Shown piece after piece: positions 18,785-34,109 of a stretch of 34,109 nt of DNA. Location of the stretch: positions 1 through 34,109 of the IMG/VR virus record IMGVR_UViG_3300031631_000012. One strand, 5' to 3'. Position 1 is the first letter of the stretch, and each line of letters starts with the position of its first letter. The notes under the pieces are model-generated. The model had not been told where the DNA came from. It did no database searches and saw only the letters and a list, made by a program, of their open reading frames with translations. The stretch is from a virus (taxonomy: Duplodnaviria; Caudoviricetes). Position numbers and translations under genes: made by a program.

Positions 18785-20076
18785 CTTCTACCACCATATG
18801 CTAATATACCACCTGCTATACCACTTGCATCTATATGTCCAACTGGACTATAATAGCAAAGTCCTACACCATCTGCTCTATCAGGTGACTTGTGTAGTGC
18901 ATGTGTATGCTCAGCAAAATCCTTTTTACTTTCTATTTTCATAACCTCATAGCCACGTTTACCGTTAATGTACTCGTACTTTCTTGTATACAACTGTACA
19001 GCAAGTTCCTCATCAAGTGGCAAGTCAATCTCTTCAAGCTGATCTTTCAACTCAAAGTATATCTCAGTTGCTACGTCTTCATAATGCTCTTTATCTTTAG
19101 GAGTCCCACCAAAGTTAATCCTATTTATGGTGTAACCATCCTCTTCCAGTATATCTGCTACAGCACATCCCAAGTGGCCATTGTCTATGTTTATAATGCT
19201 ATTCTTAGTTGCAAACTCTTTCAGTGATCTTATAGTCTTATTTGCATTTTGATACTTAGCTACTTTCCAGTCAACAACCTTGTTATCAATTCTCTTGTAG
19301 AATGTTATCTCATCCCCACCTTGATGTGCTATATCTGCACCTATTACTGGAACCTTTGGTCTAGGCTTAGTAATGATACGTTGCATAGCACCTTCAACCA
19401 ACTCTGCTGGACAAACAAAACTATCATTAGCGTCTGCAAGTTCGCCTTCCCATATGTGACGTGCCATGTTCTCATCACGTGCATAGTCAGCTTCCATCTC
19501 ATCTTTCAAACTTTGTGGAAACCACCTATTGTCAGATGAAGTTAAGAACAGTGTCTTAGCTCTCTTGTCAGTGTTTCTTATGTAGTCTACATATACAGGA
19601 TCACTACTATATCTAGGATTAAAGTCCCACCAGAACACAGCATTGTCCTTTCTTATTGTTGGCCTTAGTATGTTTATTGACATACGAGATATACTTTGTG
19701 CTTCTGCTACCCAACACCTATCTGCACCTTCAAGTGACTTTATACTATCACTGTTGTGCTCGTGCAGTCCACTAAAAACAAATATTGTACCATTTGCACC
19801 AACTATCTTGTTCTTAGTTACTTTGTAGAACCACTGCCATCCAAAGTGCTTTATCGTATCAACCAACAACTTCTGCACTGACAGTTCAATACTCTTCTGA
19901 ACTTCACGTACACAAACTATAAACAATTCTTCTGTCATACCTTCCAACAACAGAATCCTTGCTATACTCCAAGAAGCACCTTTACCTCTTCCACCGTAAA
20001 CAATTCTATGTCGTGCTGTACAACCAGTAACTAACTCATCATACACCTTTTTAATTACTTCAACCTTCTGTTCCAC
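18781..20076 (-). CDS. terL: Terminase large subunit (PBSX-like N-terminus)
   Basis: Motifs YGGRG, REVQKSI..SV, SIKSLEG, LRPTIRK, FNP; nuclease motifs GADIA..G.D and KSPDRAD. Confidence 0.95.
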   Translation of the reverse strand: MEQKVEVIKKVYDELVTGCTARHRIVYGGRGKGASWSIARILLLEGMTEELFIVCVREVQKSIELSVQKLLVDTIKHFGWQWFYKVTKNKIVGANGTIFVFSGLHEHNSDSIKSLEGADRCWVAEAQSISRMSINILRPTIRKDNAVFWWDFNPRYSSDPVYVDYIRNTDKRAKTLFLTSSDNRWFPQSLKDEMEADYARDENMARHIWEGELADANDSFVCPAELVEGAMQRIITKPRPKVPVIGADIAHQGGDEITFYKRIDNKVVDWKVAKYQNANKTIRSLKEFATKNSIINIDNGHLGCAVADILEEDGYTINRINFGGTPKDKEHYEDVATEIYFELKDQLEEIDLPLDEELAVQLYTRKYEYINGKRGYEVMKIESKKDFAEHTHALHKSPDRADGVGLCYYSPVGHIDASGIAGGILAYGGRR

Positions 20077-20426
20077 TATTTGCCAACCATAACGATTGAA
20101 TCAGGAACCAAACTCTTAGCCTCTTCTTCTTGCTTACCAAATCTTTCTTTGTATATTATGTTACCAAGGTCAATTGCTGCTTTCTGAGATACAGAGGGGT
20201 TTACAGAGTCAAGGTTTCTTAGCATAGGTTTCATGATCTTCTCTTTAATGATCGCATCCTGAAACTTAACTCTAAACATGAAAGACTCACTCGACAACAT
20301 AATCTTCTGATCAAGCATCGACACGTCTGCTTTGAGCATTGCAATATCCAAGTCATAAGACTGGGTATACTGCATAATGACCTCTTCCATGAGTTCTTCA
20401 AGATTTTTTACATTAAACTTGTCCAT
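20076..20426 (-). CDS. terS: Probable terminase small subunit (start ATG 20426)
   Basis: Directly upstream of and coupled to terL; 116 aa, helical. Confidence 0.6.
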   Translation of the reverse strand: MDKFNVKNLEELMEEVIMQYTQSYDLDIAMLKADVSMLDQKIMLSSESFMFRVKFQDAIIKEKIMKPMLRNLDSVNPSVSQKAAIDLGNIIYKERFGKQEEEAKSLVPDSIVMVGK

Positions 20427-20432
20427 GTACAT

Positions 20433-20462
20433 AGTATATACACAGTATGTCTGGTATGTCAA
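20433..20462 (-). promoter_or_regulatory. sigma70-type promoter of the morphogenesis operon
   Basis: TTGACA-18 nt-TATACT on the minus strand. Confidence 0.7.
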
Positions 20463-20739
20463 GTTTTACTTATCATTTAGTATCTTATATATAACATATC
20501 TAATAGTATAACTCTGGATGTTGCTAAAAGTTCTGTGAGATGTGGCTGGCAGGGAGTCCTGAGATGCCGGAGGCCGTATCCTATGTTTTATGTGCATAAA
20601 GAATATGTGTACACATCAGAGTTCATTGACTGAGTGGTGTTTAAGTCCAAAGTGCTGCTTGGATATGACCCTATAATAATGGTCATACGCCAATGACCGC
20701 ATGATGATTAGTTGTATGTTGTGGGGTAGAGGTGTTATG

Positions 20740-20897
20740 GCATATGTGACACGTGTAATGGTAGTATTTGATATTTGACATGGAATATAGCATATGTGAC
20801 ACGTGTAATGGGGTAGAGATAGTAGAGGCTATTTGGCATGGAATATGGCATATGGCGTATGGCGTATGGCATATGGCATATGTGACACGTGTAATGG
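20740..20897. repeat. Three 22-bp direct repeats plus a heptamer array
   Basis: GCATATGTGACACGTGTAATGG at 20740, 20790 and 20876; (TATGGCR)x5 at 20844-20878. Confidence 0.95.
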
Positions 20898-21529
20898 TTG
20901 AAGTGTTGCTTGGGATATAGTGGTTAACACCTCTACATAGGGTGGGGTGTATATAGTCTTTGACATATATTGCGTACCACTTGTCAAATAACTAATCTTC
21001 TATACTTCACTAACTATTATTGTTTATTGTGTTGTGTGCATTGTATATGCTATGTACTACACTATATTATATATGTTATGTACTCCAGTATTATATATTA
21101 TGTATTATATATTGTGTAATACACTGGACTATACTACACTTCCTATATTGTGCTACTCATTACATACTACCTATTATATACTGGCCAGCTGGACACACTG
21201 ACTAACATACTACACTACTGTACTAACTGTTATAATATACATACTAATAGTATGTATGTAATAAACTGTGTAAATTATCTGATTTAATGTGGTATATACT
21301 TTTATACACAGTAATTGATAGACATACATACTGCGTCAATGTTACCCTATAAGACATAATAAGCCGATTATTAAGTATCATAATGATACAATATACATTG
21401 CTAAGTGTATATTATGTGTCAATATGATGCACTTAGCATTGTATCATATTGACTCATATTGATGTGTTACTGTGTATTAGCATTATACCATGCTTACACT
21501 GTGTTAAATTGTAGTAGTATGCTTACTAA

Positions 21530-21546
21530 TTGGCCTGATTCCTGCT
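21530..21546 (+). promoter_or_regulatory. Possible sigma54 (-24/-12) promoter upstream of the early island
   Basis: TTGGCCTGATTCCTGCT has GG-N10-GC with three mismatches to TGGCACG-N4-TTGCW. Confidence 0.4.
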
Positions 21547-21641
21547 ATATATAAGTATGGAAGTAATAAAAAACATGTTTAATTGTAACACTAACACTAT
21601 TGATCAAACTATAATCAATGTATACAATTGAATTACATAAT

Positions 21642-21847
21642 ATAGAGGAGATATAAAGATGGATGAAAAACTGTATACATATAGAATAATCTATACCGAT
21701 GATTTAAACCTAACTTACAAGAGAATGACAACAATTGCGCATAATTCAAACAATGCAAAAATTGTATGTATGGAAAGTAATAAAAAAATGGTTATTGTTG
21801 ACTGTATAAGACTAGCAAAATAGAGGAGATATAAAGATGGATGAAAA
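21642..21847 (+). repeat. 28-bp exact direct repeat spanning the RBS and first codons
   Basis: ATAGAGGAGATATAAAGATGGATGAAAA at 21642-21669 and 21820-21847. Confidence 0.95.
21659..21823 (+). CDS. Small early protein (54 aa)
   Basis: Manual ORF MDEKLYTYRIIY...CIRLAK with a GAGGAG SD. Confidence 0.75.
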   Translation: MDEKLYTYRIIYTDDLNLTYKRMTTIAHNSNNAKIVCMESNKKMVIVDCIRLAK

Positions 21848-22007
21848 GCATATGATCCAAATTGTTAACATACTTGACAGTAGTATAGACACAAGCAATC
21901 TTACTTATCAGGAACTAGAAACAATCAGCGACAGACTAATAGACCAGCATAACGATAATGTACGCAAAACAAAAACTTTTGAATCTTATTATAAAGGAGA
22001 TATATAA
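21837..22007 (+). CDS. Small early protein (56 aa)
   Basis: Manual ORF MDEKHMIQIV...YYKGDI with a GAGGAG SD. Confidence 0.75.
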   Translation: MDEKHMIQIVNILDSSIDTSNLTYQELETISDRLIDQHNDNVRKTKTFESYYKGDI

Positions 22008-22009
22008 AA

Positions 22010-22147
22010 ATGAGTGATTACACACAAGCACAAGAAATTATAAATAAACCAGTTAGCACATTAGAATTACTAATGTTACTATCAAATAATGACTTGCAAT
22101 ACTGCTTAATGGACGAAATAAAGGAGGATGAACAAAATGAATATTGA
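22010..22147 (+). CDS. Small acidic early protein (45 aa)
   Basis: Manual ORF MSDYTQAQE...EDEQNEY with an AAGGAG SD. Confidence 0.7.
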   Translation: MSDYTQAQEIINKPVSTLELLMLLSNNDLQYCLMDEIKEDEQNEY

Positions 22148-22538
22148 TGTGTACAATAGAATAAAAAAGAATAGCCTTCCACTACTGGAAGATTACAAAA
22201 CCGATTTGTTGCAACATGATTTTAAGCAAATAACAAGTATAGAATGGACTTCGTTTATACACTTTACCCGAAATAGTGGTACTCATTTATTAAAATTATC
22301 AACTGTCGGCTATCCTAAGAAAAATGAAATTGTACCCTACTTGTTTAGTCAAGCCGATAGACTACATATATTAAAAGAGTTATATACTGTATTTGAAACA
22401 TTGCAGGGAAGCGCACTAATTATTCAGTACTATGATTTTAATAATGATACTGTAAAAATAATCAGTTCGGAAAGTGCTGAAAGTTTGATTTTAAACTTTA
22501 CAAGAAATACAATAAAAAAATGGAGCGTAGAAAAATGA
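22137..22538 (+). CDS. Hypothetical early protein
   Basis: AAGGAGG SD 9 nt before ATG 22137; Y..DL..HD...F...R..GTHL pattern. Confidence 0.8.
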   Translation: MNIDVYNRIKKNSLPLLEDYKTDLLQHDFKQITSIEWTSFIHFTRNSGTHLLKLSTVGYPKKNEIVPYLFSQADRLHILKELYTVFETLQGSALIIQYYDFNNDTVKIISSESAESLILNFTRNTIKKWSVEK

Positions 22539-22861
22539 GAGATATTGAGGAAAAAATGGTAAGGGCTATACAAGATAAAAAGAGTTTTACTTTAGATAAT
22601 ACTAAAGTAATCATACAAGATGACAATACTATAGAAGTATTATTGCATAATAATCTAATTGCTAGAATTAAAATTGATGGCAGTATGCTTTTGTTTGATG
22701 GTGGATACCAAAGTAGTACTACTAAAAACAGACTTAATGCTTTGTTGTATGGTAGACCACAAAAAATATACCAGAAAAATTATTGTTGGTATGTCACAGA
22801 TACAATAAAAAATAAAACAATTCTTTTTGAGGATATAAATACATTAAACTTACAATTCTAA
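22535..22861 (+). CDS. Conserved phage hypothetical protein
   Basis: MR.IE..M..AI...NT.V...LH.N.IA...GG..S.TTK.RLNAL...YQK pattern, recognised from phage early proteins; ATGA overlap. Confidence 0.8.
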   Translation: MRDIEEKMVRAIQDKKSFTLDNTKVIIQDDNTIEVLLHNNLIARIKIDGSMLLFDGGYQSSTTKNRLNALLYGRPQKIYQKNYCWYVTDTIKNKTILFEDINTLNLQF

Positions 22862-22888
22862 TTTACAATAAAATAGGAGAATGAAAAA

Positions 22889-23188
22889 ATGAAAAATACA
22901 GTAACATTAAACGATTTTAAGGACGCTTTTAAAGATCATGATAGACAAGATAGTTTTAGTTATGAGGGATTTGAGGCATTATTTGACTCATTAGAAGAAT
23001 ATGAAAAAGATTGTGATATAGAAATTGAGCTGGATATTGTTGCTATTGATTGTGAGTATACAGAATATGAGAACTTCGAAGAATTACAAGATGTTTATGA
23101 TGATATTGAAAACATGGATGATTTGCGAGATAATACAATAGTTATAGAAATAGCAAATACTGACAGATTTATTATACAAGATTATTAG
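22889..23188 (+). CDS. Highly acidic protein, candidate DNA mimic / antirestriction factor
   Basis: 32 D/E versus 7 K/R in 99 aa (hand count); AGGAG SD. Confidence 0.55.
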   Translation: MKNTVTLNDFKDAFKDHDRQDSFSYEGFEALFDSLEEYEKDCDIEIELDIVAIDCEYTEYENFEELQDVYDDIENMDDLRDNTIVIEIANTDRFIIQDY

Positions 23189-23196
23189 TATAATTT

Positions 23197-23230
23197 GAAC
23201 ACTAGTATAATTGTATTAGTGTTCTTTGTT
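23197..23230 (+). terminator. Intrinsic terminator
   Basis: GAACACTAGTA / TATTAGTGTTC stem followed by TTTGTT. Confidence 0.6.
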
Positions 23231-23258
23231 ATCTTAATAATTAAAGGAAGGTGGAAAG

Positions 23259-23456
23259 ATGATCAAAATGGGAACAAATAGGGTTTATTGGAAAATAGAG
23301 TTTTTAACTAAGAAAGAAAATTGTGCTGTTGCATGCTTTAGCCCTAAGTTTTACGGTTCTTTTATAGACTGTAAAAAATGGGTAAACAATCAAGATTTTC
23401 TTAATTTCTATAGAAATAGTACAAAATTATATGAAAGAATAACTTTACAAGTATGA
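23259..23456 (+). CDS. Hypothetical protein (65 aa)
   Basis: ORF track; purine-rich SD region. Confidence 0.65.
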   Translation: MIKMGTNRVYWKIEFLTKKENCAVACFSPKFYGSFIDCKKWVNNQDFLNFYRNSTKLYERITLQV

Positions 23457-23486
23457 GTATATTAAAACTACAATTACAATATTCTT

Positions 23487-23516
23487 ATAGTCCAGTGTTA
23501 ACACTGGACTATTTTT
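23487..23516 (+). terminator. 26-bp perfect palindrome with T tail (terminator)
   Basis: ATAGTCCAGTGTT|AACACTGGACTAT followed by TTTT. Confidence 0.7.
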
Positions 23517-23539
23517 CATGTTCAAAGGAGTAAACAAAA

Positions 23540-23614
23540 ATGATTGAAATAATAAAGGGCTTTTTATTTTTTATGGGCTTGTGTCTGGTGTTGATTATAT
23601 TCTTTCTATTATGA
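23540..23614 (+). CDS. 24-aa single-pass membrane peptide
   Basis: AAGGAG SD; MIEIIKGFLFFMGLCLVLIIFFLL. Confidence 0.55.
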   Translation: MIEIIKGFLFFMGLCLVLIIFFLL

Positions 23615-23643
23615 AAGAAGTGTTAAATAAACTTGTCAGACTA

Positions 23644-23672
23644 TTGACTATTATTAGTTAGTATGATACACT
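23644..23672 (+). promoter_or_regulatory. sigma70 promoter with extended -10
   Basis: TTGACT-17 nt-TACACT with TGn. Confidence 0.75.
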
Positions 23673-23730
23673 CATATTAAGTTCAAGGTTGGTGTATGCC
23701 AAACCTAATAAAAACCAAGAGGGTAGAAAA

Positions 23731-24150
23731 ATGACAGAAGATAACAAAGCAGTAGAAGCACCAAAAGTATCAAAGTTTACAGAAAAAAGAAATGCAGCAA
23801 AAGCAACATTGAAAAAATACTTAGACACCAAACCAACCCTAACTCCAGAAGTTATGGACGCAATTAAATATATGGCTGGTTTGGGTGCAAGAAGTCAAGG
23901 TATGGTTGTTTCAAGTGCACTTCATGACTTGCTTGTAATTGGAAAACCTGTGCCACTTGTTGACATATTCACAAAGTTTGAATATGGTCGACCAACAATG
24001 GAGAAAAAGGTAAGAGACTTTATCAAAGCTTCTCCAGAAAATAGAATATGGGTTGCTTTTGAAAATGGTGCATATGTACTTAAAGGTAAAGGTGCTGATG
24101 CTCCAAGAGGTTGGACAGGATATCTCCCAACTGTTAAAGAAGAACTATAG
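23731..24150 (+). CDS. Hypothetical basic protein in its own transcription unit (139 aa)
   Basis: GAGGG SD before ATG 23731; flanked by a promoter and a terminator. Confidence 0.8.
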   Translation: MTEDNKAVEAPKVSKFTEKRNAAKATLKKYLDTKPTLTPEVMDAIKYMAGLGARSQGMVVSSALHDLLVIGKPVPLVDIFTKFEYGRPTMEKKVRDFIKASPENRIWVAFENGAYVLKGKGADAPRGWTGYLPTVKEEL

Positions 24151-24174
24151 AATATTAGTTCTTACATACTAACC

Positions 24175-24208
24175 AAGCCCTTCCAGTTAACTCTGGAAGG
24201 GCTTTTTT
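24175..24208 (+). terminator. Intrinsic terminator
   Basis: AAGCCCTTCCAG-TTAACT-CTGGAAGGGCTT-TTTT. Confidence 0.9.
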
Positions 24209-24213
24209 ATGCA

Positions 24214-24323
24214 CAGAGAGAGAGAGACACACACACATACATTCACACCTGCTATGTGCAGAGAGGCAGAGAGAGAGAGACACACAGACATGATCCAGAG
24301 AGGCAGAGAGAGAGAGACACACA
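24214..24323. repeat. Three GA/CA-rich direct repeats
   Basis: CAGAGAGGCAGAGAGAGAGAGACACACA is identical at 24259-24286 and 24296-24323. Its 20-nt core is also at 24214-24233, and a partial copy is at 25403-25421. Confidence 0.95.
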
Positions 24324-24329
24324 TCCCTT

Positions 24330-24346
24330 AGCAAGAAGCGTGCCAA
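24330..24346 (-). promoter_or_regulatory. Consensus sigma54 promoter
   Basis: Minus strand TTGGCACGCTTCTTGCT is an exact TGGCACG-N4-TTGCW match. Confidence 0.7.
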
Positions 24347-24589
24347 CTCTCTAAAATGGCCATACCTCCAATATCTCCAAATCGAAAATTTTTTGCCCTT
24401 AGCTAGCTTGAGAGTGCAATACAGATTTACAACACACTAAAGTAACAAAGAAGTGAAATAAATAACTTTAAATGGTAAATGGGAGTCAATAAATGGTCAA
24501 ATGTAACCACAGATGACCAATTGGCACGGACAAAATAGCGAAAAAAGTTCAAAATAAATTTCATAAATATCAATGTTTGTCAATAGCAC

Positions 24590-25270
24590 TTAGTGTGATC
24601 GTTTTACCCTCCAAATGATCGTTTCTGATCGTAAATAGCCCTTTTTGTGATCAAAAACGATCAAATAAGCCCCTTTCATTAGATACGTCACTCTGATACA
24701 TTATATACACAATCAGCGATATGGAGGAAATGGAGTTAAAATCCGCATTTTTATCTTCACGTGTTTTATAGAGTTACTGGAGATAACATATGCAAATGGA
24801 CATTTTTGGTGTATACTTTGTAACATGTTTGTCCCAAACGTGTATCAATGGATTTAACACATATAAGGGGCTGTACCAATATATAAACGTACTACACCAC
24901 CAAATATAAAATAAGAAGTGTAGAATACGGTGCGTTGTTACAAAGATGACAAAATATCTGTAGATTTTCAAAAAAAAAAAACGTAAAATCTCAAAAAATA
25001 TATTGCCTGTATATTTGTATATTTTGTATCACACTCGAGTAACTCTATACAGCATATAGACTTACAGCATCCACTTTGGGACAAACGTGTTACAAACTTT
25101 TTCAAATATCGCCATAACACGCAGCAAACGGCAAATACGGCTCAACATACTAAACTTAACTCTATACCCTGTAACGACTTATACACCTAATATACACTGT
25201 GACAAACTTCTCTTATGTTTGTCACAAAATTATTTTTCGTCAACATTCTTCAAAATGATCGTTTGGGGTC
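24590..25270. other. Non-coding block with iterated and inverted motifs; candidate replication origin
   Basis: Multiple TGATCGTTT copies, 16-bp and 22-bp inverted repeats, and an A12 tract. Confidence 0.4.
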
Positions 25271-25533
25271 ATAATTATTTTCAATTATTTTCATTAACCT
25301 CCAGCACGTATCAAGTCCTCCACAATCCTTCTCACCCGACATAATCCCCCACAATCCTCCAAAATTAGATCCATAACCCTCATAACACACCCGAATCTCC
25401 AACAGAGAGGCAGAGAGAGACGCATACCAATTAGTGATAGCAATACAGCATTTATCCATCAACAACGTCTCACAAGTCCACCAGTGAAGAGGTTTTATTG
25501 GTATCCGAATATCTGAAAATAGTTCTACCTCCC

Positions 25534-25562
25534 TTGACATTTAAATAGATATCTGATATATT
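25534..25562 (+). promoter_or_regulatory. sigma70 promoter with extended -10 for the right-arm operon
   Basis: TTGACA-17 nt-TATATT with TGn. Confidence 0.8.
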
Positions 25563-25614
25563 GATTTATGAGCAAATGAGTACAGAACGTAATAAATAAT
25601 AAGGAGGTGATAAA

Positions 25615-25917
25615 TTGGAAGAGCTACTAAGCAGAAAGATATCAGTTGATGGAGTTGAATACTACAAAGTATCAACATTTGCAAAATTAACAAAGAGATC
25701 TGAGCAATCAGTTAGATTGTTGGTCAATTCTGGAAATAGACTTCGCAAACTAAAGCATATAAAAATCGCTAGATCATTGTTAATTCCAGCAACAGAGTTG
25801 ACAGATTATCCTTTCTGCTTGGTAGGCATTTCAAGAAGGATAGTAAGATTTGATGCAAAGGGAGTTGAATATATTGAGTCATTAGACAACTACACAAAGA
25901 AGCAGAAAAAGAAATAA
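25615..25917 (+). CDS. Excisionase/MerR-like winged-HTH DNA-binding protein
   Basis: Y.V..FA....RS...VR.L...G..L...KI.RS.LIP pattern; AAGGAGGTG SD and TTG start. Confidence 0.65.
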   Translation: MEELLSRKISVDGVEYYKVSTFAKLTKRSEQSVRLLVNSGNRLRKLKHIKIARSLLIPATELTDYPFCLVGISRRIVRFDAKGVEYIESLDNYTKKQKKK

Positions 25918-25943
25918 TCAGTTAGATAAAGAGGTAAAAGATA

Positions 25944-26087
25944 ATGAAGAGCAAGGGCACAGTAACACAGCAGATTACAGCACTTAAAACTTCTATACGC
26001 AAGTTTGGTACGACCAGTGACAAACAAATAGCACTTAAAGACCTACAAAGTAAACTCAAGCAACAAAACTCAAAGAAAGAGGTGTAG
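25944..26087 (+). CDS. Small basic protein (47 aa)
   Basis: Manual ORF MKSKGTVTQQ...SKKEV with a GAGGT SD. Confidence 0.65.
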   Translation: MKSKGTVTQQITALKTSIRKFGTTSDKQIALKDLQSKLKQQNSKKEV

Positions 26088-26088
26088 T

Positions 26089-26379
26089 ATGACAGTATAC
26101 TACGCAAAGAGTGACAAAACAAAGAAGAAGTTTTTGTATGTGGAGCTTAGCAAAGAGCAGGCTGAAAGTTTGGAAGGTAACATAATAAGAGAGGAAGATG
26201 GACACAGAGTGCAGGCTAGAAGACAATTGCATGATCATGGTTGTCAATTTCATCTAACTACTGATGGTTCATTTGAGTTGTATTGTCATAAACGTAAAGA
26301 GACACCTAGAAAGGTATACATACTGGACACACAAAAACAACTTGATAAAGTACTTACAGTGTTAGGCTTCATCCTATAA
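26089..26379 (+). CDS. Hypothetical protein
   Basis: ORF track; GAGGTG SD. Confidence 0.75.
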   Translation: MTVYYAKSDKTKKKFLYVELSKEQAESLEGNIIREEDGHRVQARRQLHDHGCQFHLTTDGSFELYCHKRKETPRKVYILDTQKQLDKVLTVLGFIL

Positions 26380-26419
26380 AGCATGACATGCAGACACATA
26401 TAATGTAAGAGGTAAAGAA

Positions 26420-26644
26420 ATGAAAGATTTAATTGAAGACATAGCAAGTGCTATTGATGAGGGTGCACTCGAAGATGATGCTAAGGCAGAATTGCTTGAA
26501 GAGGCATGTAGAGAGTGGTTGTTACAGATTGCAGAGAGAGAGACAGATGAAGATGAGGTGTTGTGCAGTCATTGTAATGGATCAGGTGAAGGTATGTACG
26601 ATGGAACTAGGTGTACATCTTGTAAGGGTTCAGGAGTAGAATAA
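26420..26644 (+). CDS. Small protein with a DnaJ-type zinc finger
   Basis: CSHCNGSG and CTSCKGSG motifs. Confidence 0.75.
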   Translation: MKDLIEDIASAIDEGALEDDAKAELLEEACREWLLQIAERETDEDEVLCSHCNGSGEGMYDGTRCTSCKGSGVE

Positions 26645-26901
26645 TGTTTATAAAACTAAAGCTTAAGTCACAAGGGGCAAAGGTCGTATACATTAACACA
26701 GATCATATTGAAGCCTTTAGCTTAGTAAACAATCACACATACGTAGCTACTAGAGATCAGGATGCACACTATGATGTGCAAGAAACACCAGAAGAGATTG
26801 TAAGGATGATTAAAGCAACAGAGTCCGACAAAAGGTATGATACAATGGAAGCACTTAAAGATATACTACAACAGGTAACCATTTACACACAAACCAGTTA
26901 G
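26644..26901 (+). CDS. FlbD/SwrD-like small protein
   Basis: MFIKL...VYIN.D.IE...T.V...V.ET.EEIV pattern. Confidence 0.55.
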   Translation: MFIKLKLKSQGAKVVYINTDHIEAFSLVNNHTYVATRDQDAHYDVQETPEEIVRMIKATESDKRYDTMEALKDILQQVTIYTQTS

Positions 26902-26912
26902 GGAGTAAACAA

Positions 26913-27533
26913 GTGAAAAGTGAAGTAATACTAATACTTACTATAATGTTGTTAGCACAATTCAGTAACAGTATAACTGTGGACAAAGAACACAAAGTGG
27001 AGATTGCTCAAGTAAAGAGTGGTATAAGCTTAATGAGTAACTATCTGATAGTACAAAAGAACAAAGTATATAAGTATACTAAGCCTTTCAACATAGTTAA
27101 ACCAACTTCACCCTTTGGGTATAGAGAGTTGTTAAACCCTTTCACAGGTGGTGTTACAACAGGTAGTCACATGGGTATAGACATTGTTGGTAACTGGCAT
27201 TGTGAAGTTAGTTCAATTGCAGATGGTGTGGTACTTGATGTATGGCCAGTGCCTAACTGGTACTACAAGGGGCATGAATTATTTGGTGGATATATTAGAA
27301 TTGAACATGCAGATGGGTGGATTAGTGGATATGGCCACTTATCATCTATATATGTGAAAGAGGGTGATGTACTTAAAGATGGTTTGTTTTATCGCAATGG
27401 AAAGTTGTTACCTAGCAAGGGAGTCATGGGAAGACAAGGTAACACAGGTATGTCAACAGGTGAACATCTGCACCTGTCAATACAAGATGCAGAAGGTGAG
27501 TTTGTTGATCCTTTAGAATATTTGGAGTTGTAA
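26913..27533 (+). CDS. M23 family zinc metallopeptidase with a hydrophobic N-terminus
   Basis: HMGID (HxxxD), YGHL, GNTG.STG.HLH and VDP motifs. Confidence 0.9.
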   Translation: MKSEVILILTIMLLAQFSNSITVDKEHKVEIAQVKSGISLMSNYLIVQKNKVYKYTKPFNIVKPTSPFGYRELLNPFTGGVTTGSHMGIDIVGNWHCEVSSIADGVVLDVWPVPNWYYKGHELFGGYIRIEHADGWISGYGHLSSIYVKEGDVLKDGLFYRNGKLLPSKGVMGRQGNTGMSTGEHLHLSIQDAEGEFVDPLEYLEL

Positions 27534-27534
27534 T

Positions 27535-28191
27535 ATGAAAGTATCAAAACAAGCCACAGTCAGAGGGTATGTGTATAGTATGATAGAGCACTATAAAGTC
27601 AAGGATACAGAATACGGCATACAAGATCTTGTAACAGAGGTATTAAGGAGGGCTAGGTTAAGACACAGCCAAGTACTTAAGTCATACTTAATAATGGCCA
27701 TTGCAGAGTTGATGTATGGAGTAGATCCCAATGCAGACTTTAGTAGTGATGCTGCAAAGTTCTTTTATGACAAAATAGACCATGTTATACTAAACATGGA
27801 CACACTTGAAAGATATGAACGTGGTAAACCACTTAAATTGAAAGTAAAACAAGTAAGCAGTAAGTCTTATCCTGCTAAGGTGATCACTACTATGTGCCCT
27901 GAGTGTAGAGGCACAGGCAGAGTGAGAGATAGAATGATGTACACTGAGTGTAGAGTATGTCAAGGGCAAGGGTCAATCCAGCAAGCAGCACCAGACTACT
28001 CAGAGGGTGGTATAGTATATTCTAATACACCACTAGCAGAAGATTGGTTTGCACTAGAAGTATCACATGCCAAGTCAAGAAGAAAAAAGTATCCAGTACA
28101 CAATGAGGAGGTAAGACTTAAAGTAAGTGTGCCAAACAAGAAGAGAAGGGTAGTGTTACTACTTAACAAAATAAATCAAGAAGAGGTATAA
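27535..28191 (+). CDS. Hypothetical protein with a DnaJ-type zinc finger
   Basis: CPECRGTG and CRVCQGQG motifs. Confidence 0.7.
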   Translation: MKVSKQATVRGYVYSMIEHYKVKDTEYGIQDLVTEVLRRARLRHSQVLKSYLIMAIAELMYGVDPNADFSSDAAKFFYDKIDHVILNMDTLERYERGKPLKLKVKQVSSKSYPAKVITTMCPECRGTGRVRDRMMYTECRVCQGQGSIQQAAPDYSEGGIVYSNTPLAEDWFALEVSHAKSRRKKYPVHNEEVRLKVSVPNKKRRVVLLLNKINQEEV

Positions 28192-28193
28192 AA

Positions 28194-28487
28194 ATGAATA
28201 TTTTTAATAAGTACTACAATAAAGGTGAAGCAGAATTGAAAGCAGGAAGAGAGCCTATTGTGTTTAAGAAAGTTGGTAGAGGATTTGAGTCTGCAATTGA
28301 CCAGATGGAAGAAGAGAAGCTAAGTGTAGAGGAAGAGACTGAGAGAAGAAGAATAATGGTTGCTAATGGTGATGTTAGTGCTATCATAGGCATTGCAGAA
28401 AAGTTAGTAGAGCTTGAAGATATCAGGATGATTATGAAAGTACTCAGAGCTGAGAAAGTAAGCTTTGTGGGAGGGGATGTTAAATAG
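28194..28487 (+). CDS. Hypothetical helical protein
   Basis: ORF track; GAGGT SD. Confidence 0.75.
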   Translation: MNIFNKYYNKGEAELKAGREPIVFKKVGRGFESAIDQMEEEKLSVEEETERRRIMVANGDVSAIIGIAEKLVELEDIRMIMKVLRAEKVSFVGGDVK

Positions 28488-28533
28488 ACTGCTGAGTAGA
28501 GGCAGTTTAAATATACTTAAAGAGGAGATCATT

Positions 28534-28851
28534 ATGAGACACTCAGGTATAGGACTACTGTTAGTACTTACTTTTCTGGTAGGAATAGTGTTAGCAGTGA
28601 ATAGTCAAGAACTATTTGATACAAGCAGAATGTTTGTACTCTTTAATGAAACCAAGACAACCATCCAAGCACAGGTTACTACTGGTAGTCTAGTACTTGA
28701 CAGGGAGGTGGTAGTAGTTAGTTCTGCTATTAGTAAACAGGAAGTAGCCTTGTTAGTACTTACTATTATGTATTTACCAATTGCTTTGGTCACTATTAAC
28801 ATTATAATAACGAAAAGGAGAAAGGACTTGCTTGATGCAAGCTACTCTTAA
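28534..28851 (+). CDS. Two-TM membrane protein (start ATG 28534)
   Basis: GAGGAG SD; two hydrophobic segments and a basic C-terminal tail. Confidence 0.7.
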   Translation: MRHSGIGLLLVLTFLVGIVLAVNSQELFDTSRMFVLFNETKTTIQAQVTTGSLVLDREVVVVSSAISKQEVALLVLTIMYLPIALVTINIIITKRRKDLLDASYS

Positions 28852-28927
28852 CCAGTCTGATGAGTCCTTAAGGACGAAACCTGCACACCATAGTTTACAA
28901 GACCATGACCGGTGTGTGGGTCACTGG
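28852..28927 (+). ncRNA. Type I hammerhead ribozyme
   Basis: Stem I CCAGU/ACUGG; core CUGAUGA; stem II GUCC-UUAA-GGAC; GAAA; stem III CCUGCACACC/GGUGUGUGGG; GUC cleavage triplet at 28920-28922. Confidence 0.93.
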
Positions 28928-28953
28928 ATAATAAACAGTAAGGAGATAAAGAG

Positions 28954-29163
28954 ATGAGGACTAAACAAATGATGAAAGCTGTACAGACAAGAAAACCTAG
29001 TACTAAGATTAGTAAGGGTGAAGAGTTTGCTAAAGTAAGTAATATTGAAAGGAGGTTGGAGGCTAGAGGTAAGCTAATAGATGTGGTAAGTACACACAAA
29101 GTACGTATGTCAAAGAAAGCAAGAAGGAGGGCAAGAAGTGAAAGAGTTGAAGACAATAGCTGA
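28954..29163 (+). CDS. Small very basic protein (69 aa)
   Basis: AAGGAG SD; K/R-rich. Confidence 0.7.
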   Translation: MRTKQMMKAVQTRKPSTKISKGEEFAKVSNIERRLEARGKLIDVVSTHKVRMSKKARRRARSERVEDNS

Positions 29164-29437
29164 ATCGGGCATAGCAGACATATTTCATGTAACAAGTGAA
29201 CCTGGAGATGCAACAAGGTATGACTATTTTGGTTACATAGCTGGCAATAGTAACTTTAACTTCATGCCATGTGACAATACATTTAAGTATCCACAGCAAA
29301 TCAACTACTATAATGTGGCAGATCTAAACTTAGTAGATGATAAGGCTACTCTTATACTTATGGCAAGAGAGACAAACTGTAATATATTCACCTTGTTGGA
29401 GTGCATAAGAACAGTTAAAGAATTATCAGGGAGGTAA
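29138..29437 (+). CDS. Hypothetical protein
   Basis: AAGGAGG SD before the GTG start; EPGDATRY motif. Confidence 0.75.
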   Translation: MKELKTIAESGIADIFHVTSEPGDATRYDYFGYIAGNSNFNFMPCDNTFKYPQQINYYNVADLNLVDDKATLILMARETNCNIFTLLECIRTVKELSGR

Positions 29438-29441
29438 AGAA

Positions 29442-30584
29442 ATGAAAGATGAGAAAATAGTATTAACACTAAGTGTTAATTATGTAAGTCACTGGACAAT
29501 ATATGATGCTCTAAGAGAGTTGTATCAGAACATATTTGATAGATATGCAGAGGATAGTAATGCAGAATGGAATAGCACAGATTGGGATATGGACGATGAA
29601 AATAAGATTGTTTTGTCACTAAGCAATCGGAATACAGTACTTGACAAGCGAACTCTAATACTTGGAGAAACAACAAAATCAGATAACAAAGATGCTATAG
29701 GTAACTTTGGAGAAGGATACAAGTTGGCTATACTTGTGCTATTAAGGAATGACATTGATGTATCAATAATAACAGAAGGTGGCACATGGACATTTAAGCT
29801 TGAACACAATGAACAATTTGACACTAAGATGTTAACTGTTTACATTGAAGATGTAATAAATACAGATGACTTAATCTTTATAATTAAAGGTATACCAAAA
29901 AAAGTATGGAATAGTTACAGTCAGCTCAACTTAAAGTTACAGAACGACTACAAGTTCATTCAAGCAGACAATTGTGAGATACTTACAGACCAAAGAAACT
30001 TGAACAAAGTATTTGTAGGTGGTTTGTTTGTTAATGATTATGAAGGTTCCTCACTTTATGGCTATAACTTTGCACCTCACATATTCCAGTTAGGCAGAGA
30101 CAGAAAGATCATTGCAGGATGGGATGCTAACTGGCAAGCATCGAAGGCCCTTGTACAGGCTACAATGGAACATGCCGAAGTACTGAGTAAGCTTATAGAA
30201 GATAAGTTCAACACTTCTGATGCTTCACATGTACATAGGTTTGTACAGACATCAGATGTACTACTTGATGCTGTGTGGAATGAGTTTGATCGAGAATACC
30301 CTGAATCATTACCCATTGACTACAACTATGAAAGAACAAACTTAATGACTAATTACTTAGACATAAAGACAGCTACAGTGTCAACTACTGTATGCGACAT
30401 ACTTAAGCTATCATCAAAGTACACAGATAGGTTAAACAGTTTTGAAGAGAGAGAGCCACAGTTACAACCTCTTGAGGTGCTTAACAACTTCTTTGAGAAG
30501 TATTCAGATAAGTTTACTAAGGAACTTGAAGGTTTGTTTGTTACAGAGATCATGTCTAAAGCTGAGAATTGGGAGACTGTATAA
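29442..30584 (+). CDS. GHKL (HATPase_c-like) ATPase-domain protein
   Basis: ALRELYQN..D (N box) and LG.T.K....IG.FGEG.KLA (G box) motifs. Confidence 0.8.
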   Translation: MKDEKIVLTLSVNYVSHWTIYDALRELYQNIFDRYAEDSNAEWNSTDWDMDDENKIVLSLSNRNTVLDKRTLILGETTKSDNKDAIGNFGEGYKLAILVLLRNDIDVSIITEGGTWTFKLEHNEQFDTKMLTVYIEDVINTDDLIFIIKGIPKKVWNSYSQLNLKLQNDYKFIQADNCEILTDQRNLNKVFVGGLFVNDYEGSSLYGYNFAPHIFQLGRDRKIIAGWDANWQASKALVQATMEHAEVLSKLIEDKFNTSDASHVHRFVQTSDVLLDAVWNEFDREYPESLPIDYNYERTNLMTNYLDIKTATVSTTVCDILKLSSKYTDRLNSFEEREPQLQPLEVLNNFFEKYSDKFTKELEGLFVTEIMSKAENWETV

Positions 30585-30586
30585 AT

Positions 30587-30670
30587 ATGGATTTATCAGT
30601 GTATCTACTACTCTTTGTAGTAGTTGGATGTATCATTATGATACTTAATGATAAGGATGACACACTTTAA
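30587..30670 (+). CDS. 27-aa single-pass membrane peptide
   Basis: Manual ORF MDLSVYLLLFVVVGCIIMILNDKDDTL, which exactly fills the gap between its neighbours. Confidence 0.6.
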   Translation: MDLSVYLLLFVVVGCIIMILNDKDDTL

Positions 30671-30952
30671 ATGAAGTGGGAAGAGAGTGAGCTTAGAGTT
30701 GTGTTATCAAGAAGAAGGTCTAAGCTCAATACAGTGCAGGAGTGTAAAGTATGCCATGCACAGCTAGACAAAGGGACACATGTAACATCTTTCAGTGTTG
30801 TAGATAGAAAGTCTGGTACACTTGAAAGATGGTATATGTGTGAGGATCATGAGTATATGTTAAATTACAATTCAGTAGAAGATTGTGAGGTATACTTACA
30901 GCAATACTTGTTAGATAGTAGATTTACTAATGAAGTATGGTTTGAGGAATAG
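30671..30952 (+). CDS. Zinc-finger-like protein
   Basis: CKVC...CEDH motif. Confidence 0.65.
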   Translation: MKWEESELRVVLSRRRSKLNTVQECKVCHAQLDKGTHVTSFSVVDRKSGTLERWYMCEDHEYMLNYNSVEDCEVYLQQYLLDSRFTNEVWFEE

Positions 30953-30962
30953 GAGTTATATC

Positions 30963-31160
30963 ATGTTAAAAAACTTTTTAGAAGAATATGCACCAGTTGT
31001 AGGTGCTGTGACAGGTTTGGCTATCTCAAGTATATCCTACATGTGGGTTACTGCACCTTTAGACCTAACAGGTGGTGGTTTAGCAGGGGCAAGACTTTTA
31101 TTTGTTATAGTAGCACTTGCAGTAACAGCTATAGGCTATTATATAGGGGATGGTATATAA
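30963..31160 (+). CDS. Small two-TM membrane protein
   Basis: AGGAG SD before ATG 30963; two hydrophobic helices. Confidence 0.7.
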   Translation: MLKNFLEEYAPVVGAVTGLAISSISYMWVTAPLDLTGGGLAGARLLFVIVALAVTAIGYYIGDGI

Positions 31161-32791
31161 TGACAGAATTAAAAAATTATCAACATCAAGAAGAAGCCAT
31201 TGAAATGTGCAAAGATTTGGAATATTCTGCTTTGTTCATGGAAATGGGGACGGGTAAGACTAGAGTGGTTATAAAAATAGCAGAGCATAAATACTTAAAG
31301 GGTGATATAGATGCTATACTACTCATAGCACCTAACCATGTGCATACGCAGTTTGTAACTGAACAGATGCCTACTCATTGCAGTGTGCCTTATACTTCCT
31401 TGATATGGAGTTCACAGAAAAAGAATAATGTGTCATATGTCAATAGGATGGATGACTTATTTACACCTAAGATGGATAAACTCAAAGTATTTGCAGTTAA
31501 TGTAGAAGCCTTTCAGTCCGATTCTATTGTACCATTTATTGCAACCTATGTTAAGCACAACAAAGTCTTTACAATAATTGATGAGGCCACAAGAATCAAA
31601 ACTCCAAAGGCTAAGAGGTCAAAGACTATACACAAGTTAGAGAAGTATGGTCAAAGGTGTATACTTACAGGTACTCCAGTTACGAAGAGTCCATTCGGTC
31701 TGTGGTCAATGTTTGAGTTTTTAAAGCACAATTATTTTGGTGTGAACTTCTTCATATTTCAAGCAAGGCATGGTGTAATGATGCAGGGTGTCAATGAACA
31801 CACAGGTGGACGATACAAGACACTTATTGATGAGAAAACATGGAATATCACACTTAACAAAATTAAAGCTTATGAGGAAGGCAGAGGTGAAGCAGGTTTG
31901 ATGTTCACTGACTTTGAGGATGTTGCTTCGGAGATGAGCTTATCTGTAAAGAATGTACTGTTCATACACAAGCAGAAGGCATTTATTAAGTACAAAAGAC
32001 TTGATGAGCTAAAGGAGGCTATTGACTCTATCACATTTTATGCAAAGAAGAAGGATTGTTTAGACTTGCCAGACAAAATATATGAAACTGTGTTCTTAGA
32101 GATGGGTAAAGAACATAGAAGAGTGTACAACACATTAAAGAGTAAAATGCTTGTAGAGTATGAAGGAAAGGATTTAACTGTGCTTAACAAGGTGGCACTC
32201 ACAACAAGACTCATGCAGATATGTGGTGGATACTTTCCATATGTAGAAGAAAAAGATATTGAGATAGGAAGTAATCTTATTACTATAGAGAAGAAGCAAG
32301 GTATGTTGATAGGCACGAAGAATATTAAGCTTGAAAGGATTAAGGAAGAGTTTGATGAAATGTCCAGCTTCCCTGTTATCATTTGGGCTAAGTTTGTACT
32401 AGAGCTTGAGAACATATATAAGGAGTTGAAGAAAGACTACAAGTGTGCTTTGTATTATGGTAAGACCAGAACAGCAGAAAGAGAAACTATAATAGAAGAT
32501 TTTAAAGCAGGGGAATATGACATACTCATCATAAACCCCTCAGTGGGTGCATTTGGACTGAACCTACAAAATGCTACAACTCAATTTTACTACTCTAATG
32601 GGTTCAATGTAGAGGAAAGGTTGCAGTCAGAGGATCGATCACATAGAATTGGAGTAAAGGGCAACTGTCTATACAAAGACTTTGCTTTTAAAGATAGTAT
32701 TGATGAGAAGATAACAAGAGCAATAACCACAGGTAGAGACATGAACGAGTTCTTTAGTGGTAACACATTAAGAGAGATATTGGAGGATTAG
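31160..32791 (+). CDS. SNF2-family helicase-like ATPase (start ATG 31160)
   Basis: MEMGTGKT, IIDEAT, LTGTP, GLNLQ.A and QSEDRSHRIG motifs. Confidence 0.93.
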   Translation: MTELKNYQHQEEAIEMCKDLEYSALFMEMGTGKTRVVIKIAEHKYLKGDIDAILLIAPNHVHTQFVTEQMPTHCSVPYTSLIWSSQKKNNVSYVNRMDDLFTPKMDKLKVFAVNVEAFQSDSIVPFIATYVKHNKVFTIIDEATRIKTPKAKRSKTIHKLEKYGQRCILTGTPVTKSPFGLWSMFEFLKHNYFGVNFFIFQARHGVMMQGVNEHTGGRYKTLIDEKTWNITLNKIKAYEEGRGEAGLMFTDFEDVASEMSLSVKNVLFIHKQKAFIKYKRLDELKEAIDSITFYAKKKDCLDLPDKIYETVFLEMGKEHRRVYNTLKSKMLVEYEGKDLTVLNKVALTTRLMQICGGYFPYVEEKDIEIGSNLITIEKKQGMLIGTKNIKLERIKEEFDEMSSFPVIIWAKFVLELENIYKELKKDYKCALYYGKTRTAERETIIEDFKAGEYDILIINPSVGAFGLNLQNATTQFYYSNGFNVEERLQSEDRSHRIGVKGNCLYKDFAFKDSIDEKITRAITTGRDMNEFFSGNTLREILED

Positions 32792-32962
32792 ATGAAGTTT
32801 AATGTACCAGCCATATTGTATCCTGATCCACCAGAAAGGGAGTCTTATCCATGCCCTGAGTGTAATGGAAGAATGACAAGTGGAACAATGTCGGAGGACA
32901 GGTACTTATGGGTGTGTAATAAGTGTAGCTATTCTTGGAATGAATTGGGTAAGGAGGATTAG
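32792..32962 (+). CDS. Small zinc-ribbon protein (56 aa)
   Basis: Manual ORF with CPEC...CNKC; GGAGG SD. Confidence 0.75.
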   Translation: MKFNVPAILYPDPPERESYPCPECNGRMTSGTMSEDRYLWVCNKCSYSWNELGKED

Positions 32963-33229
32963 ATGGAGGTGTGGAAATATCAGCTTGAACTTAAAGATAA
33001 GCAGGTTTTATCAATGCCAGTAAAAGCAAAGATTTTGAATGTGCAAACCATACGTAATAGACCTTGGTTGTTAGCACTGGTTAACCCTACAACAGATACT
33101 ACAGATAGGATAGTTAGGGTATATGAGACTGGAGATACAATAAAAGGTGGTAAGTATGCTGGCTCGCATCAGGATGATACTGGCACTTTCTTGTATCATA
33201 TTTTTGACGATGGTGAAAAGGAAGGATAG
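32963..33229 (+). CDS. Conserved phage hypothetical protein
   Basis: WKY.L...MP..A.IL.VQ...ALV.P...TG...Y.GS.Q...H.F pattern, recognised from phage proteins. Confidence 0.75.
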   Translation: MEVWKYQLELKDKQVLSMPVKAKILNVQTIRNRPWLLALVNPTTDTTDRIVRVYETGDTIKGGKYAGSHQDDTGTFLYHIFDDGEKEG

Positions 33230-33230
33230 A

Positions 33231-33515
33231 ATGGAACAACTAATAATAACTAGACACTTAGCACTTGTACAGTACTTGAGAGAATCGGGCTTAGTAAGAC
33301 CAGATGCAAAGCATGTGTCATACGCTAAGATATCGGATGTAGTTGGAAAGCATATATTTGGTATACTTCCTTTGCATGTAGCCTGTCATGCCGAGAAGAT
33401 GACAGAGCTACAGTTAAGACTACCAGTAAACAAAAGAGGTGTGGAGCTTACTGTTGAGGAAGTAAAGACTTTCTGTTTGGAGCCTAAGACTTATTCTATA
33501 AGAGAGGTGGACTAA
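33231..33515 (+). CDS. csx16: Csx16 (Cas_VVA1548)-like protein, putative ring nuclease (start ATG 33231, 94 aa)
   Basis: ITRH.A...L...G, G.LP.H.A and L.LP...RG.EL..EE...Y.I motifs, with Csx16-like spacing and length. Confidence 0.75.
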   Translation: MEQLIITRHLALVQYLRESGLVRPDAKHVSYAKISDVVGKHIFGILPLHVACHAEKMTELQLRLPVNKRGVELTVEEVKTFCLEPKTYSIREVD

Positions 33516-33733
33516 TGAAGGATAAGAAGTATACTCTAACTGTGTCCCTACTTTGGAATAGTGAAAAAGGCAAGCAAGACCTAGGAGTATCACGTATCAA
33601 TGATGGTTTTAATGCGTATGAGGTACTAGGTATCTTAGCAGAAGCACAGGATGATATACTGAACCAGATGAAGGGGCATATTAAGCCGGATGTAGTAACA
33701 AGACAAGTAATAGTAGATAAGGAGATGAACTAA
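33515..33733 (+). CDS. Hypothetical protein (72 aa)
   Basis: TAATG coupling on both sides. Confidence 0.7.
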   Translation: MKDKKYTLTVSLLWNSEKGKQDLGVSRINDGFNAYEVLGILAEAQDDILNQMKGHIKPDVVTRQVIVDKEMN

Positions 33734-34109
33734 TGAAAGAGACACCAGATTTCTTAAAAAATCAGAAAGATGAGGGTATGACTGAAAAGGAGATGCAAAG
33801 TCTTGAAGATCTAATAAAGGGTTATGACGAAGCACAAGCAGAGGTGAAACGTATTGAGAAACTTCTTAAACTTGCTAAAGATAACTTTAATCATATTGCA
33901 CTAAAGCTAGTGCCAGACCTTCTTTTAACACATGGAATGTCCAAAATAAGTCTTACTGATGGTAGAGAAGTAAAAGTTAAAGAGGATATATCTGCAACAG
34001 TAACAGATGATATTGCCTTTAGACAATGGCTTAGAGACAGAAAGGAAGAGAGTATCATCAAGGTTAAGTACCAGTTTACAGACTTACAGACTGAGCAAAT
34101 GTCTGGTCT
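33733..34109 (+). CDS. Conserved phage replication-region protein, truncated by the window edge
   Basis: Open frame MKETPDFLK...; a coiled coil followed by P.L....G......DG..V.V...F..WLR.....IIK. Confidence 0.7.
   Translation, partial: MKETPDFLKNQKDEGMTEKEMQSLEDLIKGYDEAQAEVKRIEKLLKLAKDNFNHIALKLVPDLLLTHGMSKISLTDGREVKVKEDISATVTDDIAFRQWLRDRKEESIIKVKYQFTDLQTEQMSG

Follow-up and report, generated by a model that had tools for sequence, protein, structure and literature searches.

A gap of 102 nt between two phage genes raises the question of whether the RNA copied from it can cut itself and, if so, what the cut would mean for the genes on either side. The gap lies in a tailed-phage contig, here called the window (the whole stretch of DNA analysed, 34,109 nt), which carries terminase, portal, tape measure and tail fibre genes on its minus strand and small genes together with replication genes on its plus strand. 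A 48,904-bp record, IMGVR_UViG_3300031603_000008 (rated 100% complete), represents the same phage, with 0 mismatches over the 10,141 nt compared. An earlier note had described the element occupying the gap (28848-28956) as a type I hammerhead ribozyme, and by every testable feature that is what the motif is, the cleavage itself being predicted.

The anatomy can be read directly from the sequence and was recovered by a descriptor scan (Table 1). Its core bases, CTGATGA, GAAA and the GTC at 28920-28922, satisfy the consensus C3 U4 G5 A6 N7 G8 A9, G12 A13 A14 A15 and U16 H17, which was taken for comparison from the methods section of PMC3088659. Three helices of 5, 4 and 10(+1) bp close the core, and no mispair adjoins it; the additional pair of stem III is A28879-U28921, and the stem contains two G-U pairs, 28882-28918 and 28883-28917. 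Stem I is open-ended, which makes the hammerhead a type I, and the rest of the type I topology is present as well, with stems II and III each closed by a loop. Core nucleotides, stem lengths and both G-U pairs thus lie exactly where the earlier note had placed them. Stem III is long for the class, its inner length of 41 nt being attained by 10 of 174 type I clusters among the matches listed from the viral scans described below. The sixth pair of stem I is an A-A mismatch in this copy (A28851 facing A28928), where a sixth pair is present in 137 of the 174 other type I clusters among the matches listed; beyond the mismatch the stem can be extended by pairing 28848-28850 with 28929-28931. Stem-loop II (window 28864-28875) is also a perfect 12-nt palindrome, through which two transcripts could pair.

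Table 1. Features of the hammerhead and of its surroundings (positions in the window)
Feature	Position	Strand	Basis
Top sigma-70-like promoter match; the long early/replication transcript likely starts here (predicted)	25534..25562	+	11/12 consensus + TG
105-aa upstream ORF, both ends hydrophobic; stop TAA 28849-28851	28534..28851	+	AGGAG before ATG
Stem I 5' arm (5 bp, with 28923-28927)	28852..28856	+	descriptor, folding, covariance model
Catalytic core C3 U4 G5 A6 U7 G8 A9 (CTGATGA)	28857..28863	+	sequence, descriptor
Stem II (4 bp, 28864-28867 with 28872-28875) with UUAA tetraloop (TTAA, 28868-28871); A28871 = predicted docking base	28864..28875	+	descriptor, folding, covariation
Core G12 A13 A14 A15.1 (GAAA)	28876..28879	+	sequence, descriptor
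Stem III, 10 bp (28880-28889 with 28911-28920), and 21-nt inner region	28880..28920	+	pair probabilities 0.96-1.0 in all contexts folded
U16.1 and C17; predicted cut after 28922	28921..28922	+	hammerhead consensus, descriptor, covariance model
Stem I 3' arm (28923-28927), A1.6, U1.7 (28929); predicted 5'-OH end at 28923	28923..28929	+	descriptor, covariation
4-bp hairpin predicted to open the downstream product; alternative to stem I as long as the RNA is uncut	28923..28939	+	folding, paired 0.96
Shine-Dalgarno AAGGAG, 8 nt before ATG	28940..28945	+	sequence; unpaired 0.97-0.98 after cleavage (predicted)
Basic 69-aa ORF, ATG 28954, first gene of the predicted downstream product	28954..29163	+	sequence
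Downstream block	29138..34107	+	99-aa ORF, 380-aa PHROG 6077 protein, SNF2 helicase, DUF7352, Csx16-like, DUF7307

A single hammerhead was found by the descriptor scan of the window, and 300 block-shuffled windows, searched on both strands, gave one relaxed match and none with stems this long. A covariance model trained on 60 type I hammerheads from other viral contigs, picked at random from 146 eligible ones with the window excluded, scores 28848-28931 at 50.2 bits (E 2.5e-11, by rough calibration), and the next-best match in the 52.5 kb searched reaches 13.6 bits. With core and stems complete, stems beyond those of the shuffled windows and this score from an independent model, the type I assignment of the earlier note holds. 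The search with hammerhead models that it had proposed came out in two ways, in that our own type I model finds the motif, whereas RF00163 (Hammerhead_1; gathering threshold 34 bits) has no match at E<=10. The Rfam scan of the window had no match at the gathering threshold; positions 20000-34109 gave only sub-threshold chance matches, including Hammerhead_3 at 25.1 bits (E 0.12), as did the rest of the phage record. The miss is probably a matter of the short type I model in Rfam against the long stem III here, and the missing RF00163 match bears on membership of the Rfam family, not on identity as a hammerhead. The parts of the record scanned with Rfam held no other ribozyme families, and pattern and covariance-model scans found just this one hammerhead in the 48.9 kb; a second ribozyme flanking a gene was looked for over the same length and is absent.

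The class to which the element belongs was sampled by three pattern scans of IMG/VR, which covered 19, 31 and 55 of the 64 collection parts and returned at least 127, at least 121 and at least 124 loci, with an estimated ~420, 250 and 140 matching stretches in the collection; the patterns fix the core and stem II, so the sample is biased. At least 348 distinct cores fell into 268 clusters by flank similarity, 174 of type I, 63 of type III and 31 untyped (33 of the 348 cores could not be typed by the descriptor). Since the patterns dictate core and stem II and the classifier dictates stems I and III, conservation of these parts is not evidence, and it is gene position and the docking bases that both left free. 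Around the type I elements, the ATG of an ORF of at least 40 aa lies 15-40 nt past the cut in 98 of 149 cases, against 11 of 146 in an antisense control, and a Shine-Dalgarno motif stands in 56 of the 103 leaders preceding such ATGs, all among the matches listed. On the upstream side, for which the 115 of 174 clusters with at least 900 nt of upstream sequence were counted, the end of an ORF of at least 60 aa falls within the 0-15 nt that precede the core in 47 of 115 (the mean over 23 upstream windows is 3.7) and within a span from 15 nt ahead of the core to 7 nt inside it in 72 of 115, among the matches listed. By position, 28 of these stops abut stem I, 12 lie inside it, 25 are the UGA of the core and 7 end 2-9 nt upstream, and 43 of the 115 loci among the matches listed have no nearby stop. 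The stop in this copy ends 5 nt before the core, and the commonest positions outside the core are -5 (13/115) and -6 (11/115), again among the matches listed. A stop codon directly before the ribozyme is therefore the class norm and not a special feature of this locus. Counted alone, the U4-G5-A6 of the core terminates the upstream ORF in 26 of 115 type I clusters among the matches listed, against 7.4 expected. Around type III hammerheads the upstream stops peak 20-35 nt before the ribozyme (23 of 42, among the matches listed); in some of them, for example L022, L047 and L096, an upstream ACAC-like stretch looks, by eye, complementary to a GUGU-like loop I, a possible 5' pseudoknot.

The earlier note had speculated that the UUAA of loop II pairs with the UUAA containing the upstream stop (28848-28851); a 4-nt match of this kind occurs in 2 of 64 relatives among the matches listed, one of the two being this copy itself, against 3.2 expected, and the 4-bp helix was rejected. 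It was also the sole candidate for a pseudoknot, one that finds no support in the relatives. The last base of loop II, on the other hand, is complementary to position 1.7 in 136 of the 174 type I clusters among the matches listed, against 60.7 expected from shuffles that ignore relatedness (50/64 against 22.2 in the first scan and 78/103 against 35.8 in the later two). Read as loop-1.7, the pair is U-A in 71 and A-U in 56 of the 174 clusters among the matches listed. This copy, with A28871 and U28929, fits the A-U pair, and A28871 is predicted to dock on U28929 in the known loop II-U1.7 contact, which would be the kind of tertiary contact between loop II and the stem I region that marks an extended (fast) hammerhead; U28929 is also able to pair with A28850 (predicted probability 0.57-0.63). 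An A/U1.7 Hoogsteen contact is described for the Schistosoma and sTRSV hammerheads (O'Rourke et al. as described in PMC11875169; PMC6155905), with which this copy shares an A as the last base of the tetraloop and a U at position 1.7, but its loop is UUAA rather than GNRA and its U1.7 has the second possible partner just named. In the constructs that PMC11875169 describes, U1.7 was not essential. Covariation between the first loop II base and position 2.7 is weaker (119/174 against 84.3 expected, among the matches listed); in this copy the middle A of the stop codon occupies position 2.7, so that one base of the stop may also belong to the docking platform. The reversed U-A pair goes together with a 5-nt loop and a 6-bp stem I in 60 of 71 cases among the matches listed, and because the docking classes differ in loop length, A-U and U-A may represent two lineages rather than many swaps.

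Stem I begins on the base directly after the upstream stop TAA, and the predicted cut leaves a 31-nt leader (28923-28953) with an intact AAGGAG ahead of the 69-aa ORF, as the earlier note had it. A homologue search with the upstream ORF recovered only itself, and neither its 128-aa long form nor its 105-aa form has a family match; the 69-aa ORF has one relative (P0002, 61 aa, 88% identical) and no family match in PHROG, Pfam and NCBIfam-type profile searches. The block that follows runs past the window into genes for a primase, a second helicase, a DNA polymerase and SSB. Of the labels ATPase, helicase and Csx16 given earlier to the downstream message, the SNF2 helicase and the Csx16-like domain pass the Pfam cut-offs, and the ATPase label is weak: the 380-aa protein belongs to a PHROG of unknown function, its NCBIfam ATPase match (E 0.035) is below cut-off, and a PDB search gave enolase only (E 0.022). 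We take this protein to have a GHKL-like look. The Csx16-like gene stands alone at window positions 33147-33515 (PF09652, E 5e-15), and farther along the replication block, at L379:1744-2391, a CRISPR-associated PHROG is matched weakly (E 6e-6).

As for the transcript, the promoter match in Table 1 is the best of 74 promoter-like sites, a number of sites near chance (58.8 +/- 7.4). On the plus strand, the stretch from 24204 to the end of the window showed no terminator-like site; past the window, the first strong one is at L379:12382-12409, preceded by two weak ones inside the operon. These ends, which are consensus matches only, suggest a plus-strand transcript of ~20 kb in which the ribozyme lies 3.3 kb from the 5' end. 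A promoter-like site within the ribozyme (28905-28932) matches 9/12 of the consensus, which is at chance level, and was rejected. A listing of RNA evidence for 27500-30600 was empty, which counts neither for nor against expression. Gaps between genes of the operon are short (13 of 18 are <=11 nt, for hand-picked ORFs). Upstream of the operon, three strong plus-strand terminator-like hairpins stand at 23197, 23487 and 24175, and gene-poor low-complexity stretches at 20400-21600 and 24180-24330 lie between divergent gene blocks. The parts of the record scanned contain no tRNA genes. Searches for diverged copies of the locus by exact-flank pattern, by the 380-aa protein in viral contigs and by P0002 in metagenome contigs returned the same phage only, and the nearest cultured phages have ~30% identity in the helicase.

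Folding depends strongly on how much RNA is present. Taken alone, 28848-28932 has the hammerhead as its minimum-energy fold (-26.4 kcal/mol), and the antisense strand adopts a different fold (-23.9 kcal/mol); the wider region 28840-28960 is not unusually stable (z -1.21). Nascent RNA ending anywhere from 28927 to 28940 folds as a hammerhead in the model, with stem I probabilities of 0.94-0.99 for four of five pairs, and by 28946-28956 competing helices win. These are the hairpin 28923-28926/28936-28939, which takes the 3' arm of stem I, a pairing of 28845-28849 with the Shine-Dalgarno region, and a helix of 8 bp (28863-28870/28955-28962) that covers the start codon. With leader and start codon included, stem I has a probability of 0.00-0.09 in all 25 contexts (ViennaRNA, which leaves out tertiary contacts and Mg2+). 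Such a low predicted probability is typical of the whole class and not exceptional here, the family median being 0.22, with 51 of 129 as low as this copy and 89 of 129 below 0.5, among the matches listed. None of 200 leader shuffles matched the hairpin with which the downstream product of this copy would begin; as a class feature this hairpin was rejected (49 against 47.4 of 173, among the matches listed).

How might the element act? We think it probable that the type I hammerhead cuts after C28922, likely during transcription or soon after it and perhaps incompletely, and thereby splits the predicted 20-kb message without host RNases. The order of folding, the cleavage and its purpose would then be as follows. 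The hammerhead fold would form once 28929 has been made, with A28871 docking on U28929, and self-cleavage after C28922 would probably come soon after transcription, with no need of host RNases; it would probably be incomplete, because the competing folds appear 11-17 nt later. The upstream piece of 3.3 kb would keep its complete last gene and would end in the stem III hairpin with a 2',3'-cyclic phosphate, and the downstream piece of ~17 kb would carry a 5'-OH, followed by a small hairpin and then by an open Shine-Dalgarno sequence. As the type I topology leaves the upstream gene complete and gives the downstream one a fresh Shine-Dalgarno and a 5'-OH, the two halves could meet separate fates, being translated and degraded independently. 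Splitting of a polycistron by a ribozyme is plausible, is the best reading of this locus and is also the standing hypothesis for phage hammerheads. Stabilisation of the downstream message, which the earlier note had thought possible, would depend on the host. In E. coli 5'-hydroxylated RNA is a poor substrate for RNase E, and the bacterium seems to have no RNA 5' kinase (PMC4191395, the latter cited there as unpublished); glmS self-cleavage leads to mRNA decay (PMC6765202).

It is also conceivable, though in our judgement unlikely, that the element is a switch gated by ribosomes. A ribosome terminating at 28849-28851, given the footprint length assumed for it, would shield the core together with the stem I 5' arm and so block cleavage; in this blocked state 28863-28870 would pair with 28955-28962 in the downstream start region and mask the start, and under poor upstream translation the ribozyme would fold, cut and free the start codon. 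The tight placement of stops described above (ORF ends from -15 to +7 of the core in 72/115, core UGA in 26/115 against 7.4, among the matches listed) is in keeping with such gating, but 43 of the 115 loci among the matches listed have no nearby stop. Moreover, the stop abuts the ribozyme mainly because the operon has almost no spacer DNA, and tight gene packing is a sufficient cause of the abutting stops, type III ribozymes having a stop peak of their own. The start codon is predicted to be unpaired at 0.40 when the 5' arm of stem I is removed and at 0.90-0.99 after the cut, and 5 of 200 shuffles of the first codons mask the AUG as well, a figure that overstates the case, the masking helix having been picked post hoc. 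As a class feature, release of the start codon was rejected, as it appears in only 4 of 129 relatives among the matches listed, and the proposed helix between loop and stop is absent. Were gating true, cleavage would read out upstream translation and switch on the phage replication genes, stops in or against stem I (72/115, among the matches listed) would reflect a widespread undescribed layer of phage gene control, and, if shown, this would be a natural ribozyme under ribosome control.

Nor do we find it likely that the ribozyme is a neutral or decaying passenger, which arrived with its leader as a module together with the small gene, mostly misfolds and has little effect on expression. That the record has just one copy, that the flanking genes have almost no relatives, that pair 6 is A-A and that competing folds prevail at equilibrium would all suit a passenger; yet no core base is missing, both the 10-bp stem III and the A-U docking pair are intact, and low stem I probability is found class-wide (89/129 below 0.5, among the matches listed). 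We give a little less credit to a role as decay trigger, in which the cut would expose the downstream replication message to a host 5' exonuclease such as RNase J, which degrades the glmS message once it is cut, and would limit or time its expression rather than stabilise it. The glmS precedent of cleavage followed by degradation (PMC6765202) speaks for the idea, as does the distance of the nearest cultured phages, only ~30% identical in the helicase. The class, however, keeps a leader and a start codon just past the cut, and a hairpin (paired at 0.96) is predicted to open the product, which would suit a translated, protected message. That the motif is a chance match to the hammerhead consensus is hardly credible in spite of the empty Rfam result, given 0 of 300 shuffled windows with such stems, 50.2 bits from an independent model and an intergenic, sense-strand position typical of the class.

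Message splitting by a type I hammerhead, the reading we prefer, has precedents. Perreault et al. (2011; PMC3088659) describe hammerheads between phage and prophage genes and propose that they process transcripts into shorter mRNAs; in the same article, tandem phage hammerheads cleave within 2-kb native transcripts and a halovirus transcript has its 5' end within 3 nt of a hammerhead cut. A 2019 review restates the processing hypothesis and calls the role of phage hammerheads undefined (PMC6765202; see also PMC6155905 on role). The present copy shares with the phage hammerheads of PMC3088659 a canonical core, an intergenic sense-strand site in a phage polycistron and a proposed part in mRNA processing. 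It differs in being one copy in the 48.9-kb record rather than a cluster of at least two ribozymes close together and flanking genes, in having no pseudoknot, in its long stem III and in that its cleavage is predicted. HHphage of haloviruses HF1/HF2 likewise lies in the early region and directly precedes a start codon, with a polycistron that includes a helicase gene behind it, and there the mapped transcript 5' end agrees with the cut (PMC3088659). It is a core variant from an archaeal virus, 13 nt before the helicase gene (PMC3088659), whereas here the core is canonical, the leader 31 nt long and the first gene a 69-aa ORF with no assigned function. The glmS ribozyme also cuts itself upstream of a coding region and yields a 5'-OH mRNA, as is predicted here, but it needs a metabolite cofactor and triggers decay (PMC6765202), and the hammerhead has no sign of a ligand module. 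Type I ribozymes of eukaryotic RNA viruses also span a short intergenic region just before a start codon, and their cleavage in vivo is partial; they are associated with cap-independent initiation, unlike the Shine-Dalgarno sequence of this DNA phage. The motif is real but ordinary, of a kind described in phages since 2011 and with a typical layout, and one more copy from an uncultured phage adds little by itself. The class-level numbers are more useful, namely the tight placement of stops, the use of the core UGA as a stop and the swap between A-U and U-A docking pairs, and they make the idea of termination coupling testable.

In other phages of the scans, some type I hammerheads are predicted to cut precisely at the mature 5' end of a tRNA. 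Five distinct tRNA-Tyr(GUA) have the predicted cut at +1 and one tRNA-His has it at G-1 (loci L061:2545, L065:2543, L165:1245, L251 on the minus strand at 282, L390 on the minus strand, L386, which is the same sequence as L165 on another contig, and L151:1266). The 5' arm of stem I varies in step with the acceptor strand of the tRNA. Such arrangements make up 5 of 315 typed cores among the matches listed; a targeted scan gave 8 loci, of which 6 are of this kind, four being on the same contigs as before. They probably represent two lineages only. The predicted cut would replace RNase P and leave a tRNA with a 5'-OH, the mirror image of the theta ribozymes that PMC10879173 places at tRNA 3' ends. 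The mostly open-access literature searched held no hammerheads at phage tRNA 5' ends, no termination-coupled phage hammerheads and no reversed docking pair, subjects that the supplements of PMC3088659 (alignments, and Figure S5 on tertiary contacts) may cover. These tRNA-end hammerheads are likely of more interest than the intergenic copy and could matter more.

Two cultured N4-like phages also carry unannotated hammerhead cores, Xanthomonas phage RiverRider (MG983743.2, L381:1501-1529) and Agrobacterium phage OLIVR1 (MT234338.1, L382:1501-1526). One of the two cores lies ahead of a tRNA cluster and the other between small early genes, and at both sites infected cells would permit 5'-end mapping.
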